A program made the translations under genes and the position numbers. A DNA stretch of 64,000 nt, from NCBI GenBank assembly GCA_035512515.1, contig DATKDY010000261.1, forward strand, positions 33,575 to 97,574. The letters are read 5' to 3'. Source of the stretch: Vicinamibacterales bacterium. Lineage in GTDB: Bacteria > Acidobacteriota > Vicinamibacteria > Vicinamibacterales > UBA2999. Positions 20,265-28,007 of this stretch are shown here, one piece after another. Numbering within the stretch: the first letter of the stretch is position 1; every line of letters starts with the position of its first letter. The notes beneath the pieces were generated by a model, which was not told the origin of the DNA, did no database searches, and worked only from the letters and a program-made list of their open reading frames with translations.

Positions 20265-21290
20265 TTGGGTCTGGGGTCGTTTTTGTCGTTCCTCTCAACG
20301 GATCTTGCGATCGATCTCGGGACCGCCAATACCTGCGTCTACGCGAAAGCACGCGGGATTGTCGTCAACGAGCCGTCGATTGTGGCGGTGAACAGAGTCA
20401 ATGGACGCGTCGAAGCCGTCGGCCGCGAGGCGAAGGAGATGCTCGGCCGCACGCCGGGCAACATCGTCGCCATCAAGCCGATGAAGGATGGCGTCATCGC
20501 GGATTTCGACGTTACCGAGAAGATGCTGACGTATTTCATCAAGAAGGCGCACAACGGCAACGTCTGGGTCCGCCCGCGCATCATCATCGGCGTGCCCTCG
20601 GAGATCACGCAAGTCGAGAAGCGCGCCGTCAAAGACAGCGCCTACCGCGCCAAAGCCAGTGAGGTCCACCTCGTCGAAGAGGCCATGGCCGCGGCCATCG
20701 GTGCGGGCCTCCCCATCACCGAGCCGGCCGGCAGCATGGTCGTGGACATCGGCGGCGGCACGACCGACATCGCCGTCATCTCGCTGGCGGGCATTGTCTA
20801 CAGCAAAGCCGTCCGCGTCGCCGGCAACGAAATGGATGAAGCGATCATCCAGTACATCAAGAAGACGTACAACCTCCTCATCGGGGAGCGCACGGCCGAA
20901 CAGATCAAGATGGAATTGGGGTCGGCATATCCAGTCGATGAGCGCATCACCATGGAGATCAAGGGCCGGCATCTGATCGAAGGCGTTCCAAAGACCATCA
21001 CCGTCACCGACGAGGAGATCCGCGAATCGCTCGCCGAAACGGTCAACGTCATTGTGGACGCCGTGCGTGTCGCACTCGAGCGGACGCCGCCGGAGCTGTC
21101 GGCCGATATCGTCGATCGCGGCATTGTCCTGACCGGGGGTGGGTCGCTGCTGCGCAATCTCGACAAGCGGCTGCGCGAGGAAACGGGACTGCCCGTGACG
21201 ATGGCCGAAGATCCGCTGTCGTCGGTGGTGCTCGGGGCGGGGAAGATGCTCTCGGATTTCGACTTGCTCAGGAAAATTGCGATCGACTGA
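20265..21290 (+). CDS. mreB: rod shape-determining actin homologue MreB
   Basis: The TTG at 20265 follows AGGGGA. The product contains [56 protein letters not shown]. Confidence 0.95.
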
Positions 21291-21322
21291 TCACCGGGTC
21301 GACACTCCGCTGCGACGATAAC

Positions 21323-21422
21323 CACGATGGGTACGAAGTCCACGAAGGACACGAAGGTTTGGAATAAATTGTCCCCGCCCTTGGTGTCCATCGTGACCTT
21401 CGTGACCTTCGTGACCTTCGTG
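21323..21422. repeat. 9-mer tandem-repeat palindrome: 4 x CACGAAGGN-type units, 19-nt AT-rich loop, 5 x NCCTTCGTG-type units
   Basis: A direct read gives cacgatggg tacgaagtc cacgaagga cacgaaggt | ttggaataaattgtccccg | cccttggtg tccatcgtg accttcgtg x3. It lies inside the mreB-mreC spacer. Confidence 0.92.
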
Positions 21423-21433
21423 TTGGGGAACTG

Positions 21434-22423
21434 ATGGCATCTGTTCAACTCTCCCAGCGGCCGCTGCTCGTCTTCGCCGGCGCCGTCGTGCTTCACGTCA
21501 TCCTCATCTCGGCGCAAGTGAGTACGACCGCCGGCATCCCCTTCATTCAGGTCGTCACCTTCGGCGTGTTTTCCGAAGTGCAGCGCGGCACGATGACCAG
21601 CGTCGACAGCGTGCGCGGCGTCTGGACCGGTTACGTGGCGCTGCGCGACGTCCAGGAAGAAAACGAGGCGCTCAAGCGCGAGTTGCAGACGCTGCAAGTG
21701 CGCCTTCAGGAAGAACGCGCCCAGGCCCAGCGCGCGGAGAATTTCCGGCAGCTCCTCGAATTGCGGGAGCGCGCGGGTGTCGACACCCTGGCCGCGGAGA
21801 TCATCGCCGGGCCGGCGGATCTCGAATTTCGCGATATGACCATCGACAAGGGCAGCGTCGACGGGATTGCACGCGACATGGCGGTGGTCTCTCCGGCCGG
21901 CGTCGTCGGCCGCGTGACGCTGACGAGCCCGCGAGCCGCACGCGTGCAGATGTTGATCGACCGCAATGCCGCTGCGGGAGCGATGATCGAGCGCACGCGC
22001 GCCCAGGGCCTGGTCAGGGGTAAAGGAACGACGCTCAGCATGGACTATGTGCCGGGCACGGCCGACGTGAGGCAGGGGGACCTGGTCGTCACCTCCGGGA
22101 TCGACAAGATTTATCCGAAAGGATTCGTGATCGGGACGGTCGAGGCGATCGAACGGGGCCGGGGGACGTTCCACGAGATCGTGGTGCAACCGTCAGTCGA
22201 CTTCTCGCGGCTGGAAGAGGTCCTGGTCGTCACGACGCCCCCACCAGCAATTACGGCGGAGCAGATCGCCAGGGAAGCCGAGGCGATCGCCGCCGAGCAG
22301 CGGCAACCCCAGAAGAACCAGTCCCCGGCGCCTCAGACCCCACCGTCGGACGCCGCGCCCCCGGCCCGCGCGCCCGCCAACACCACCCCGCGGCGGGTGA
22401 GCCCTGGGGAGCCAGGCGCGTGA
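21434..22423 (+). CDS. mreC: rod shape-determining protein MreC
   Basis: It has an N-terminal anchor, a coiled coil (ENEALKRELQTLQVRLQEE), beta domains (VVSPAGVVGRV.., GDLVVTSGIDKIYPKGFVIG) and a Pro-rich tail. Confidence 0.9.
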   Translation: MASVQLSQRPLLVFAGAVVLHVILISAQVSTTAGIPFIQVVTFGVFSEVQRGTMTSVDSVRGVWTGYVALRDVQEENEALKRELQTLQVRLQEERAQAQRAENFRQLLELRERAGVDTLAAEIIAGPADLEFRDMTIDKGSVDGIARDMAVVSPAGVVGRVTLTSPRAARVQMLIDRNAAAGAMIERTRAQGLVRGKGTTLSMDYVPGTADVRQGDLVVTSGIDKIYPKGFVIGTVEAIERGRGTFHEIVVQPSVDFSRLEEVLVVTTPPPAITAEQIAREAEAIAAEQRQPQKNQSPAPQTPPSDAAPPARAPANTTPRRVSPGEPGA

Positions 22424-26130: not shown

Positions 26131-26209
26131 GGCAGGTCGGGCGGGTAGGGCTGGTGGGCCGGGTCCTGCCCGCCCAGCCCCACCAGCCGCACCAGCCCCA
26201 CCAGGCCCA
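26130..26209. repeat. 9-mer array: 4 x GGGCNGGTN followed by 5 x CCAGCCCCA-type units, all in 9-nt phase
   Basis: A direct read gives gggcaggtc gggcgggta gggctggtg ggccgggt | cctgcccgc ccagcccca ccagccgca ccagcccca ccaggccca. It starts on the G of the rodA TAG and ends 4 nt before the rng ATG. Confidence 0.92.
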
Positions 26210-26213
26210 GACC

Positions 26214-27797
26214 ATGAACAAAGAAATGATCATTGCCTCGAATGGCCACGAAACCCGTGTGGCGATCCTCGAGGACGATCTCGTCGCCGAGATCTTCGTC
26301 GAGCGCGAGCGCAATCGTGGAGTGGCAGGCAACGTTTACAAGGGACGCGTGTCGAAAGTCCTGCCCGGCATGCAGTCGTCCTTCGTGGACATCGGGCTCG
26401 AGCGCGACGGGTTCTTGTATGTCTCCGACGTCGTCAGCCCCGCCGATCTTTTCGACGATGACGAAGAGGAGGACGACGGCCCGGACCAGGCCCGGGAGAA
26501 AGCGAAGCGCGCGGGCCGTGGCCGCGGCGATCAAGCGCGCGGGGCGGCGCAAATCAGGAGTGAACGCGTGGAAGGGCGGATCGAAGATCTGCTGAAGGAG
26601 GGCCAGGAGATTCTGGTCCAGGTGGCCAAGGAGCCGCTCGGCACCAAAGGCGCCCGTCTGACGTCACATGTGACCCTGCCCGGCCGATTCCTGGTCTTCA
26701 TGCCGACCGTCGATCACATCGGGGTCTCGCGCAAGATCGCAAGCCGCGAAGAACGCGGACGGCTGCGCGGCATCGTGCGCGAATTCCGGGAGCAGCATTC
26801 GTTCAGCGGCGGCGTCATCATCCGCACGGCGGCCGAGGAGCGCTCCAAGGAGGACATCCTGGCCGACCTCCAGTACTTCTATCGCATCTGGACCGACATG
26901 CGGCAGAAGATGGAGTCGCATCGCGCACCGGCTGTCGTTTACCAGGAGCCAAGCCTCGTGGCCAAGCTGCTCCGCGACCTGCTGACGGACGATTACACCG
27001 CCATCCGGATCGATCATCGGGAAGAACACCAGCGCGTCGTCGAGTTCATCGAGCGCATCATGCCGGCCCTGGCCAGCAAGGTGAGGCTCTACGACAAGGA
27101 TTTCCCGATCTTCGAGGAATACGGCGTTCAGGCCGAGCTCGAGAAGGCGCTGCGCAGCAAGGTGTGGCTCAAGTCCGGCGGCTCGATCGTGATCAACCAG
27201 ACCGAAGCGCTGGTCGCCGTCGACGTCAACACCGGCCGTTACGTGGGGAAAAAGACGGCCGGTCGGCTCGAGGACACAATTCTCAAAACCAACCTCGAAG
27301 CGGTCAAGGAGATCGTTCGCCAGATCCGGCTCCGCGACCTCGGCGGCATCATCGTCCTCGACTTCATCGACATGGAGGAGAAGAAAAACCGCCAGAAGGT
27401 GTTCCAGACCGTGGAGCAGGAACTGCGCAAGGATCGCGCGCCGTCCAAACCGCTTCAGGTACAGGACTTCGGCCTCGTGATCATCACGCGCAAGCGAGTG
27501 AAACAGAGCCTCGAACGGGTGTTGACCGAACCGTGTCCCTACTGCGCCGGCGGCGGCACCATCAAGTCGAGCTCGACGATTTGCTATGAGATTCTTTCAG
27601 AGGTGAAGAAGGTCGGCGGCGACATGGATGGCCCTGGCGTGCTGCTGCGCGTGAACCCGGACATCGCTCGCGCGCTCAAGGAAGAGGAGCGGAACGTCGT
27701 CAAGGACCTCAGGCATTTGCTGGGCAAGGACGTCATCGTCAAGCCCGACGTGCACCTGCATCACGAGCAGTTCGACGTGATGTCGATCGGCGGCTGA
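26214..27797 (+). CDS. rng: ribonuclease G / RNase E-G family endoribonuclease
   Basis: The product begins MNKEMIIASNGHETRVAILEDD.. and has an S1 domain (GNVYKGRVSKVLPGMQSSFVDIG). It also contains LGTKGARLT, EALVAVDVNTG, LRDLGGIIVLDFIDM and CPYCAGGG. Confidence 0.9.
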   Translation: MNKEMIIASNGHETRVAILEDDLVAEIFVERERNRGVAGNVYKGRVSKVLPGMQSSFVDIGLERDGFLYVSDVVSPADLFDDDEEEDDGPDQAREKAKRAGRGRGDQARGAAQIRSERVEGRIEDLLKEGQEILVQVAKEPLGTKGARLTSHVTLPGRFLVFMPTVDHIGVSRKIASREERGRLRGIVREFREQHSFSGGVIIRTAAEERSKEDILADLQYFYRIWTDMRQKMESHRAPAVVYQEPSLVAKLLRDLLTDDYTAIRIDHREEHQRVVEFIERIMPALASKVRLYDKDFPIFEEYGVQAELEKALRSKVWLKSGGSIVINQTEALVAVDVNTGRYVGKKTAGRLEDTILKTNLEAVKEIVRQIRLRDLGGIIVLDFIDMEEKKNRQKVFQTVEQELRKDRAPSKPLQVQDFGLVIITRKRVKQSLERVLTEPCPYCAGGGTIKSSSTICYEILSEVKKVGGDMDGPGVLLRVNPDIARALKEEERNVVKDLRHLLGKDVIVKPDVHLHHEQFDVMSIGG

Positions 27798-28007
27798 TGG
27801 CGCGGATTACGACGGGATTACGCAGATGAATGGTATCCGCAGATTGCGCAGATTACGCAGATTCTCGCTTTTCATGTTGGCAGATGTCCTCACGGCGTGC
27901 GGAGTCGGACGGTTCCAGAACGGATCCGATGGTAAGTAATCTGCGCAATCTGCGGAATCTGCGCATACCATTTCATCTGCGTAATCCCGTCGTAATCCGC
28001 GTCATCA
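27795..28007. repeat. long inverted repeat: ~62-nt arms (~90% complementary) built from 9-mers (GCAGATTNC, GGATTACGN), 73-nt loop
   Basis: The left arm is 27802-27863 and the right arm is 27937-28000. The palindrome extends outward to include the rng TGA (27795-97) and the stop of the convergent gene (28005-07). Confidence 0.93.

Follow-up and report, generated by a model that had tools for sequence, protein, structure and literature searches.

The rod-shape genes mreB, mreC, mreD, mrdA, rodA and rng lie in one row within a 64-kb stretch of DNA from a Vicinamibacterales bacterium (the window, meaning the whole stretch analysed), and wherever two neighbours do not overlap, the space between them is filled by short tandem units and their reverse complements. 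What are these fillers, and do they belong to the operon or to the genome at large? The original prediction took them for RNA hairpins that punctuate the polycistron and thereby set the MreB:MreC/D:PBP2 stoichiometry. It was found here that they form a lineage-wide class of intergenic elements, tied to the 3′ ends of genes and turned over by whole units or modules; that they are a conserved regulatory part of the mre operon is not supported. The reading we prefer, at a probability of roughly 0.5, is that the fillers are genome-wide, lineage-wide and rapidly evolving tandem-unit hairpins of Vicinamibacterales, soil Acidobacteria, which would have originated by slippage and would exert a generic effect on 3′ ends like that of REP elements.

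Arrays were located with TRF, their arms with an inverted-repeat search, and the genes were identified with Pfam. In all four non-overlapping junctions, tandem units of 7–9 nucleotides (nt) are followed by reverse-complement units, at the places where the prediction had put them, and the two remaining junctions, mreC/mreD and mrdA/rodA, are gene overlaps (GTGA and TGATG, respectively), also as described. The parts of the four fillers are as follows.

21323–21358, plus strand: 5′ arm between mreB and mreC, four 9-mers of CACGAAGGN (CACGATGGG, TACGAAGTC, CACGAAGGA and CACGAAGGT), beginning 32 nt past the mreB stop
21359–21378, plus strand: loop of this element, 20 nt, A+T-rich
21379–21423, plus strand: its 3′ arm, five units of CCTTCGTGN (CCTTGGTGT, CCATCGTGA, CCTTCGTGA twice and CCTTCGTGT), ending 10 nt before the mreC ATG
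22949–22992, plus strand: module A between mreD and mrdA, GCTTTCG GCTCACA GCTTTCA GC / GCTGGCA GGCGATA GCTGAAC, beginning 22 nt past the mreD stop
23000–23093, plus strand: module B, a second copy of module A whose GCYGANA arm has grown to about 9 units, ending 5 nt before the mrdA ATG
26128–26164, plus strand: G-rich arm between rodA and rng, the TAG stop plus four units of GGGCNGGTN from 26130 (GGGCAGGTC, GGGCGGGTA, GGGCTGGTG and GGCCGGGT)
26165–26208, plus strand: C-rich complementary arm, ending 5 nt before the rng ATG (26214)
27795–27863, plus strand: left arm between rng and the convergent gene, beginning with the rng TGA, units of GCGGATTAC/GCAGATTNC
27864–27937, no strand assigned: centre of this element, its first ~25 nt common to the interior of a 0.9-kb version in the related locus L001
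27938–28007, plus strand: right arm, ending with TCA, the stop of the facing open reading frame (ORF) on the minus strand

Both modules at the mreD–mrdA junction run from TNTCRGC heptamers into GCYGANA heptamers. The TAG stop of rodA falls inside the first unit of the array behind it, and the G-rich arm of that array has six G3 tracts and therefore matches a G-quadruplex (G4) motif. Behind rng the filler is a 213-nt palindrome (27795–28007) that reaches exactly from one stop codon to the other, and its arms of GCAGATTNC-type 9-mers are 91–97% complementary. Some regularities claimed for all junctions held only in part. The units do differ from junction to junction, but other parts of the window contain three of these four types again; the arms hold unequal numbers of units between mreB and mreC (4/5) but not in the rng palindrome, which is symmetric with about equal numbers; and an array at or next to the stop codon is found behind rodA and rng only, those behind mreB and mreD being set off from it. 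When the spacers were folded and scored against 200 dinucleotide shuffles, the anticipated long stem-loops were obtained, with z-scores of -3.6 (mreB–mreC), -3.1 (mreD–mrdA), -3.3 (rodA–rng) and -16.0 (rng–convergent gene). The stem-loops of the three operon-internal spacers cover nearly the whole spacer, and the folds are equally significant under DNA and RNA parameters.

How far does this architecture extend beyond the cluster? A search with PBP2 gave 80 genome loci, nearly all from Vicinamibacterales/Acidobacteriota metagenome-assembled genomes, and also 80 metagenome loci, of which only L081–L083 were used further, in the comparison of close relatives. The statistics of gene context refer to the window plus the 80 genome loci (~986 kb, 89.5% coding), with heuristic gene calls based on third-position GC (GC3). 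Arrays of period 7 are intergenic in 123 cases and coding in 18, and those of period 8 in 24 and 8. Within the window, 19 arrays of period 7–9 were counted, as compared with 1.5 ± 1.6 in shuffled windows. Among spacers of 30–600 nt, an array is present in 36 of 60 convergent ones (60%), 76 of 251 co-directional ones (30%) and 9 of 65 divergent ones (14%), and the divergent class, although it has the longest spacers (median 192 nt), is occupied least often. Where the genes are co-directional, the first array begins at a median of 8 nt past the stop codon (42% within 5 nt), and the median distance from the end of the last one to the start codon is 23.5 nt. The window taken alone shows the same trend in location as the pooled set. 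These data support a strong tie of the arrays to gene ends, as opposed to gene interiors or a random placement, which is the outcome that the prediction had staked itself on. The source contigs of the relatives include k141 and NODE names of short-read assemblers, multi-Mb contigs and one complete chromosome, and the architecture is seen in dozens of independent assemblies, the very long contigs and the complete chromosome among them; since it recurs in independent assemblies of such different kinds, the arrays are not assembly artefacts.

The second half of the architecture, reverse-complement pairing, was scored where at least two tandem reverse-complement units lie no more than 160 nt from an array. 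It is present in 76 of 144 intergenic 7–9-mer arrays, whereas control probes that were merely reversed or complemented gave 3–8 of 144. Pairing is found in 40 of 50 convergent and 33 of 90 co-directional cases. Where the two arms differ in G/C, the G-rich arm stands 5′ in 18 cases and 3′ in 2, with identical polarity on both strands; stop codons within the units were considered as its cause, and inspection of the units gave no consistent pattern. Terminator-like hairpins read by eye likewise have the G-rich side first. Single-armed arrays show no strand preference (27 versus 28), on which account a fixed orientation relative to genes was rejected as the cause of convergent pairing. The order of variant units in one arm is not mirrored in the other (0 of 32 pairs at p ≤ 0.1), so the arms evolve independently after a common seed, and a whole-arm inverted duplication is rejected as the general origin, the rng palindrome being the exception.

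Comparison of orthologous spacers in about 80 Vicinamibacterales genomes revealed both the architecture and a variation in unit number, but a patchy occupancy. The spacers range from 0 to ~260 nt, and the long ones are mostly filled in the same manner. A tandem array is present between mreB and mreC in 33 of 71 loci (19 of these with reverse-complement units), between mreD and mrdA in 13 of 72 (3), between rodA and rng in 19 of 67 (6), and between rng and the convergent gene in 33 of 51 (22); compact spacers of at most 30 nt occur at each operon junction in 16–27 loci. The units are lineage-specific (GGGAGTC, GGGATCC, GTTCGCN, GGCTAGC, GGCTGAA, CACGGAAG, GTAGCGA, CAGTTNC, CTTGGGG, GCAGTAG and others), with at least 116 different canonical units among the relatives and GGGANNC heptamers as the commonest family.

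In the closest relatives (90–92% PBP2 identity), units are fewer, a single module stands where the window has two, or the site is empty. Between mreB and mreC, the 5′/3′ arms hold 4/5 units in the window, 3/2 in L001 and 4/about 5, with a different loop, in L083. At mreD–mrdA a single 84-nt module corresponding to module A is found in L081–L083, and the window has this module duplicated with one arm expanded. In L082 (92% PBP2 identity), the rodA–rng spacer is 18 nt long and the spacer behind rng only 6 nt, with the junction reading TGAGGCGCCTCA, itself a perfect 12-nt palindrome. L031 is shorter than L016 by exactly 7 nt. At the mreD–mrdA site of L001, the nearest relative among the genome loci (5823–6003), three GTAG-headed REP-like palindromes (CTGTAGCGGCCGGAC...GTCCGGCCG) stand in place of the heptamers between conserved flanks, which suggests that this site may be a hot spot for different types of repeat. 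Also in L001 (10695–11600), the GCGGATTAC-unit arms of the window palindrome lie ~740 bp apart around an insert; the ORFs of this insert gave no Pfam match, and it has no similarity to any other fetched locus. The rodA–rng spacers of the more distant L058, L061, L062, L065, L074 and L077 (98–196 nt) contain an apparent small hydrophobic ORF and no repeats, and a DNA motif, GCGTGCTGGCTSGCCGG, recurs in those of L061, L062, L065 and L074.

What process could produce such elements? We propose that the element would be seeded by a short palindrome lying past a stop codon and ahead of the next gene, and that replication slippage would then duplicate or delete whole units in each arm independently, and sometimes whole modules. 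Independent slippage in each arm would leave unequal numbers of units and variants that are not mirrored. Selection would remove the arrays that hit coding sequence, ribosome-binding sites or promoters, and as a result the survivors would accumulate against stop codons. Once transcribed, the element could fold into a long beaded stem-loop that would act as a generic barrier to 3′–5′ exonucleases; between convergent genes it may assist pausing or termination, and inside operons it would be at most an untuned modulator. The role is most likely that of a generic REP-like 3′-end hairpin, or none.

Several results weigh against this proposal. No terminator-like or promoter-like site was found in any of the four spacers, and no U-tract follows the hairpins. 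A canonical terminator is present in only 2 of 64 co-directional array spacers; in convergent ones, a canonical hairpin with stem and T-tract stands between the arms in 13 of 33 array-bearing cases. Selection on the sense RNA was rejected, as the sense strand folds better than the antisense strand in only 26 of 65 array-bearing co-directional spacers, and in these 65 spacers the sense RNA has no excess of G-U pairs (205 sense, 240 antisense). RNAalifold gave no covariation support for six GGGCNGGTN spacers (term +1.44), a result that is uninformative because the pairs lie in invariant unit positions. Translational coupling through masking of the ribosome-binding site was likewise discarded, the last 15 nt before the start codon being paired to 0.48 as against 0.50 in array-free spacers. 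Close relatives do without the elements, so any function must be dispensable. Moreover, most of the context counts were gathered at orthologous loci that surround a single operon, and they rest on the heuristic GC3 calls, so that their independence is overstated and the effective sample is smaller than the counts imply. The lack of RNA-strand asymmetry, of covariation and of mirrored unit order argues for slippage in situ on each arm of a seed palindrome.

The same negative results would suit the arrays being functionless by-products, that is, debris of slippage or template switching on hairpin-prone DNA which is tolerated past stop codons and has no effect on RNA. The very fast turnover with empty sites in close relatives, the absence of sense/antisense asymmetry, covariation, mirrored units or sequestered ribosome-binding sites, and the single-armed arrays without strand preference are all consistent with it, and an excess of heptamers and changes in their copy number have been ascribed to polymerase slippage in work cited in PMC4679880 and PMC4692102. 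Nevertheless, a strand-symmetric neutral process does not predict the G-rich-first polarity (18 versus 2), nor does it sit well with pairing being far commoner in convergent than in co-directional spacers, or with divergent spacers being the longest but least occupied, although constraint by promoters could equally explain the last point. We regard the by-product explanation as possible but rather doubtful. At the other extreme stands a reading with more function: expandable tandem-unit hairpins would be the main gene-end structure of Vicinamibacterales without a U-tract, serving convergent genes as bidirectional terminators or decay barriers and operons as attenuators, with a strength that slippage changes stepwise, and the G-rich arm coming first would shield the C-rich arm from Rho. 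Were this true, the strength of gene ends, including those of the mre operon, would be a rapidly evolvable, contingency-like trait; we consider this more ambitious version unlikely.

Adaptive punctuation of the mreB–mreC–mreD–mrdA–rodA–rng transcript, by partial termination, RNase processing or 3′-end protection that sets the stoichiometry of the rod complex, is highly improbable. It draws on the near-full-spacer stem-loops in all three operon-internal spacers and on the recurrence of arrays at the operon junctions in many relatives, but occupancy is patchy with compact spacers in 16–27 loci per junction, the unit families vary with the lineage, the rodA–rng spacer is only 18 nt long in a relative at 92% PBP2 identity, and nothing indicates selection on the sense RNA. 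Since the elements are missing from near relatives and are found behind unrelated genes all over the window, a device for the MreB:MreC/D:PBP2 ratio is not supported, and the phenomenon is one of the genome and the lineage. A role at the level of DNA or as binding sites (G4/i-motif, cruciform, or periodic protein sites that affect supercoiling, replication or transcription) would accord with the absence of strand asymmetry, with folds as significant under DNA as under RNA parameters and with the fixed and free positions in each unit; in addition, the GGGCNGGTN arrays (26130–26164 and 6803–6842) match the G4 motif, GGGANNC is the commonest family in the relatives, and Xanthomonas units form G4 structures in vitro (PMC4692102). 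However, most units of the window, namely CACGAAGG, GCYGANA, GGTTCCAA and GCAGATTAC, have no G3 tract, and the number of different canonical units among the relatives argues against one sequence-specific binding protein; this role is very unlikely. The least probable explanation is that of mobile elements of the miniature inverted-repeat type, or of derivatives of some larger element, which would insert at gene ends with the units as their terminal inverted repeats. The junction behind rng, empty in L082, palindromic in the window, with arms that resemble terminal inverted repeats, and split by ~740 bp in L001, and the different fillers between conserved flanks at the mreD–mrdA site, with the REP-like triplet of L001, are what one would expect from mobility. 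Yet target-site duplications are not visible, the rng palindrome has no further copy in the window or across ~1.6 Mb of related loci (160 loci), the insert of L001 has no protein recognisable by Pfam, and the arrays differ from those of relatives by whole units and not by presence or absence of a fixed element. A genome-specific repertoire of units, which would hint at a mobile or trans-acting mechanism, was rejected as too weak, as the sharing of unit families within a genome is only slightly raised (10.7% versus 5.1%, p 0.067).

All six genes of the cluster were confirmed by Pfam.

20265–21290, plus strand: mreB, Pfam MreB_Mbl (E 6e-148), alternative TTG start at 20223
21434–22423, plus strand: mreC, Pfam MreC (E 1e-44)
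22420–22926, plus strand: mreD, Pfam MreD, sharing the GTGA overlap with mreC
23099–25039, plus strand: mrdA (PBP2), Pfam Transpeptidase and PBP_dimer
25039–26130, plus strand: rodA, Pfam FTSW_RODA_SPOVE, sharing the TGATG overlap with mrdA
26214–27797, plus strand: rng (RNase E/G family), Pfam RNase_E_G (E 3e-98), N-terminus MNKEMI conserved in relatives
28005–28778, minus strand: convergent ORF, no Pfam match, conserved in L001 and L082

The reading frame of rng is open back through the 9-mer array into rodA (25749–27797), for which a mechanical ORF list gives 682 amino acids, and the GC3-based caller put the start at 26154, inside the array. The start is placed at 26214 because the N-terminus MNKEMI is conserved in relatives. 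At the end of mreD (22927–22945), a -10-like box is conserved at or just past the stop codon, as TAAACT in the clade of the window and GATAAT elsewhere; it is shared with L001–L012, L015, L018, L025, L030 and the clade with compact spacers, where it coincides in part with the TAA stop of mreD and stands only ~10 nt ahead of the mrdA ATG. The box suggests that mrdA may have a promoter of its own inside the operon, perhaps a leaderless one, and the arrays of the window lie downstream of it. Rfam at its gathering threshold detected only a tRNA-Leu (at 4155) in the window, and at E ≤ 1 it gave no match in 21200–28100. Exact-protein look-ups with RodA and MreC for contigs of the same species found nothing on record.

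At least seven further arrays of the class stand behind other genes of the window; the following were described individually.

6803–6842, plus strand: AGGGCAGGT, 4.4 copies, between convergent genes, with only a short C-rich partner, fold not significant (z 0.3)
16817–16922, plus strand: between convergent genes, 8 copies of GGTTCCAA from within a TAA stop and then about 5 units in reverse complement, DNA fold z -8.9
31234–31304, minus strand: single-armed GCYGANA-type heptamers, about 10 units, ending 2 nt before the start codon of a minus-strand gene
50549–50608, plus strand: 10-mer GGGTGCGNCC, 6 copies, directly after a TGA stop
52000–52067, plus strand: GCYGANA, 9 copies, providing the last codons and the TAG stop (52012–52014) of the upstream gene
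58118–58206, plus strand: GCACGAAGG, 3 copies from a TAG stop, an A+T-rich loop and 3.6 copies of TCGTGTCCA, same unit as between mreB and mreC, DNA fold z -6.0

At all three of its sites in the window, the purine-rich GCYGANA arm is on the sense strand and ends 2–10 nt before a start codon (23093/23099, 31234/31231 on the minus strand and 52067/52078). The last unit at each of these is GAAAGC, which is Shine-Dalgarno-like and recalls the start-proximal TAACTGA repeats of Beggiatoaceae. A co-directional spacer of ~255 nt (46849–47131) is full of one-sense, nearly T-free arrays, GAACTAA in 4 copies, followed by units of GAACGACAC type whose periods are 8, 12 and 17 nt; having no reverse-complement arm, it is unable to fold on itself. 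A GGDEF gene precedes mreB, and the divergent region on its upstream side contains a 13-mer (GAACCGCTGTGCA) in 3 copies (19054–19092). The orthologous regions (L017:2301–2430, L020:2278–2416, L045:2226–2406 and L050:1868–1962) contain arrays of 11–13-mers in 3–10 copies, followed by the reverse complement in L017, L020 and L045, while both arrays of L050 are in direct orientation; they represent the same theme at a longer period, here within a promoter region. Intergenic elements of a second class are short, G+C-rich hairpins whose loops are of the UUCG type (CTTCGG/CCGAAGG), often in runs of several (e.g. GGCGCGAAGCGCC twice, GCGACCGAAGGTCGC), at 34514–34646, 50632–50682 and 61177–61239 of the window and in the mreB–mreC spacers of L015, L016, L018, L023 and L025.

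Why should one care about such spacers? Long simple sequence repeats have been known since 2007 as an oddity of some bacterial genomes, without an accepted function as far as the citing papers relate. The present lineage offers an unusually rich natural experiment, with dozens of unit families at the same orthologous junctions, sites that are filled in one near relative and empty in another, and arms of clear polarity. It makes several questions testable: how such hairpins originate, whether transcripts are ended or stabilised by them, in a phylum with essentially unstudied terminators, and whether the number of units tunes expression. It also carries a warning for annotation, because spacers in these genomes are filled with repeats and ORF callers extend genes through 9-mer arrays.

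The architecture was compared with known systems. As the prediction had held, it is not that of REP/BIME, BOX, Correia or CRISPR elements. CRISPR repeats are 24–48 nt long and separated by unique spacers, whereas the units here are 7–9 nt, contiguous, and reverse-complemented in the second half. With the REP/BIME elements of enterobacteria and pseudomonads the arrays have in common that they are extragenic hairpins at gene 3′ ends and inside operons. REPs protect upstream mRNA and can affect translation termination when they lie within about 15 nt of a stop codon. They are conserved imperfect palindromes of 20–40 nt with a GTAG or CGTC head, occurring in near-identical copies and linked to RAYT transposases (PMC3733652); the elements here are made of tandem units, and the window arrays share no full-length consensus, the GTAG-headed triplet of L001 being a different element. 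Rho-independent (bidirectional) terminators share the stem-loop directly 3′ of genes and the polarity with a G-rich 5′ and a C-rich 3′ side. In place of their stem, short loop and U-tract, the array hairpins have much longer stems (35–70 nt) that are interrupted at every unit, and in the four spacers no U-tract.

By unit length and copy number (TRF periods of 7, 8 and 9 nt, 2.8–9.7 copies), the arrays of the window are long simple sequence repeats, for which a 2007 survey of prokaryotes, cited in PMC4679880 and PMC4692102, is the reference (units of 5–11 nt; the definition used here adds at least 3 copies), and the numbers of units and modules vary among the window, L001 and L081–L083, as the copy numbers of such repeats do. 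With these and with the STRR heptamers of cyanobacteria they share an excess of heptamer tandem arrays in non-coding DNA. As described in the sources at hand, both are direct arrays, and those descriptions do not include reverse-complement pairing, abutment on stop codons or stop-to-stop palindromes; for Nostoc, only few paired repeats are described alongside the STRR heptamers. The TAACTGA heptamers of marine Beggiatoaceae are abundant, intergenic and of unknown function, and some overlap stop codons (PMC4679880). Unlike the arrays here, they stem from one unit family, are direct in all but one inverted case and lie mostly immediately 5′ of start codons.

The closest precedent, by which the architecture proves less unfamiliar than first thought, is the paired GGGAATC heptamers of Xanthomonas campestris/axonopodis (Rehm et al. 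2015, PLoS One, PMC4692102). These are 89–93% intergenic, very near or overlapping the stop codon of the upstream ORF and under-represented between divergent ORFs; 70–75 cases per genome consist of two convergent arrays able to form a stem-loop, the length varies between species while the site is kept, and the function is unresolved (PMC4692102). The arrays described here agree in tandem short units, in their intergenic location near or overlapping the upstream stop, in plus/minus-strand convergent pairs with stem-loop pairing, in divergent depletion and in the variation of length between species. Xanthomonas, however, uses one G-rich heptamer family genome-wide with a preferred number of 4 units, which follows a G4 logic, whereas in the window at least four G3 tracts are found only in the GGGCNGGTN arrays. 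Searches of the literature turned up no account of repeats like these for Acidobacteriota. What sets the present case apart from the published systems is that many lineage-dependent unit families of 7, 8, 9 and 10–13 nt, mostly without a G3 tract or G4 potential, coexist in a different phylum, Acidobacteriota, and that they build palindromes from stop codon to stop codon, some of which flank canonical terminators.

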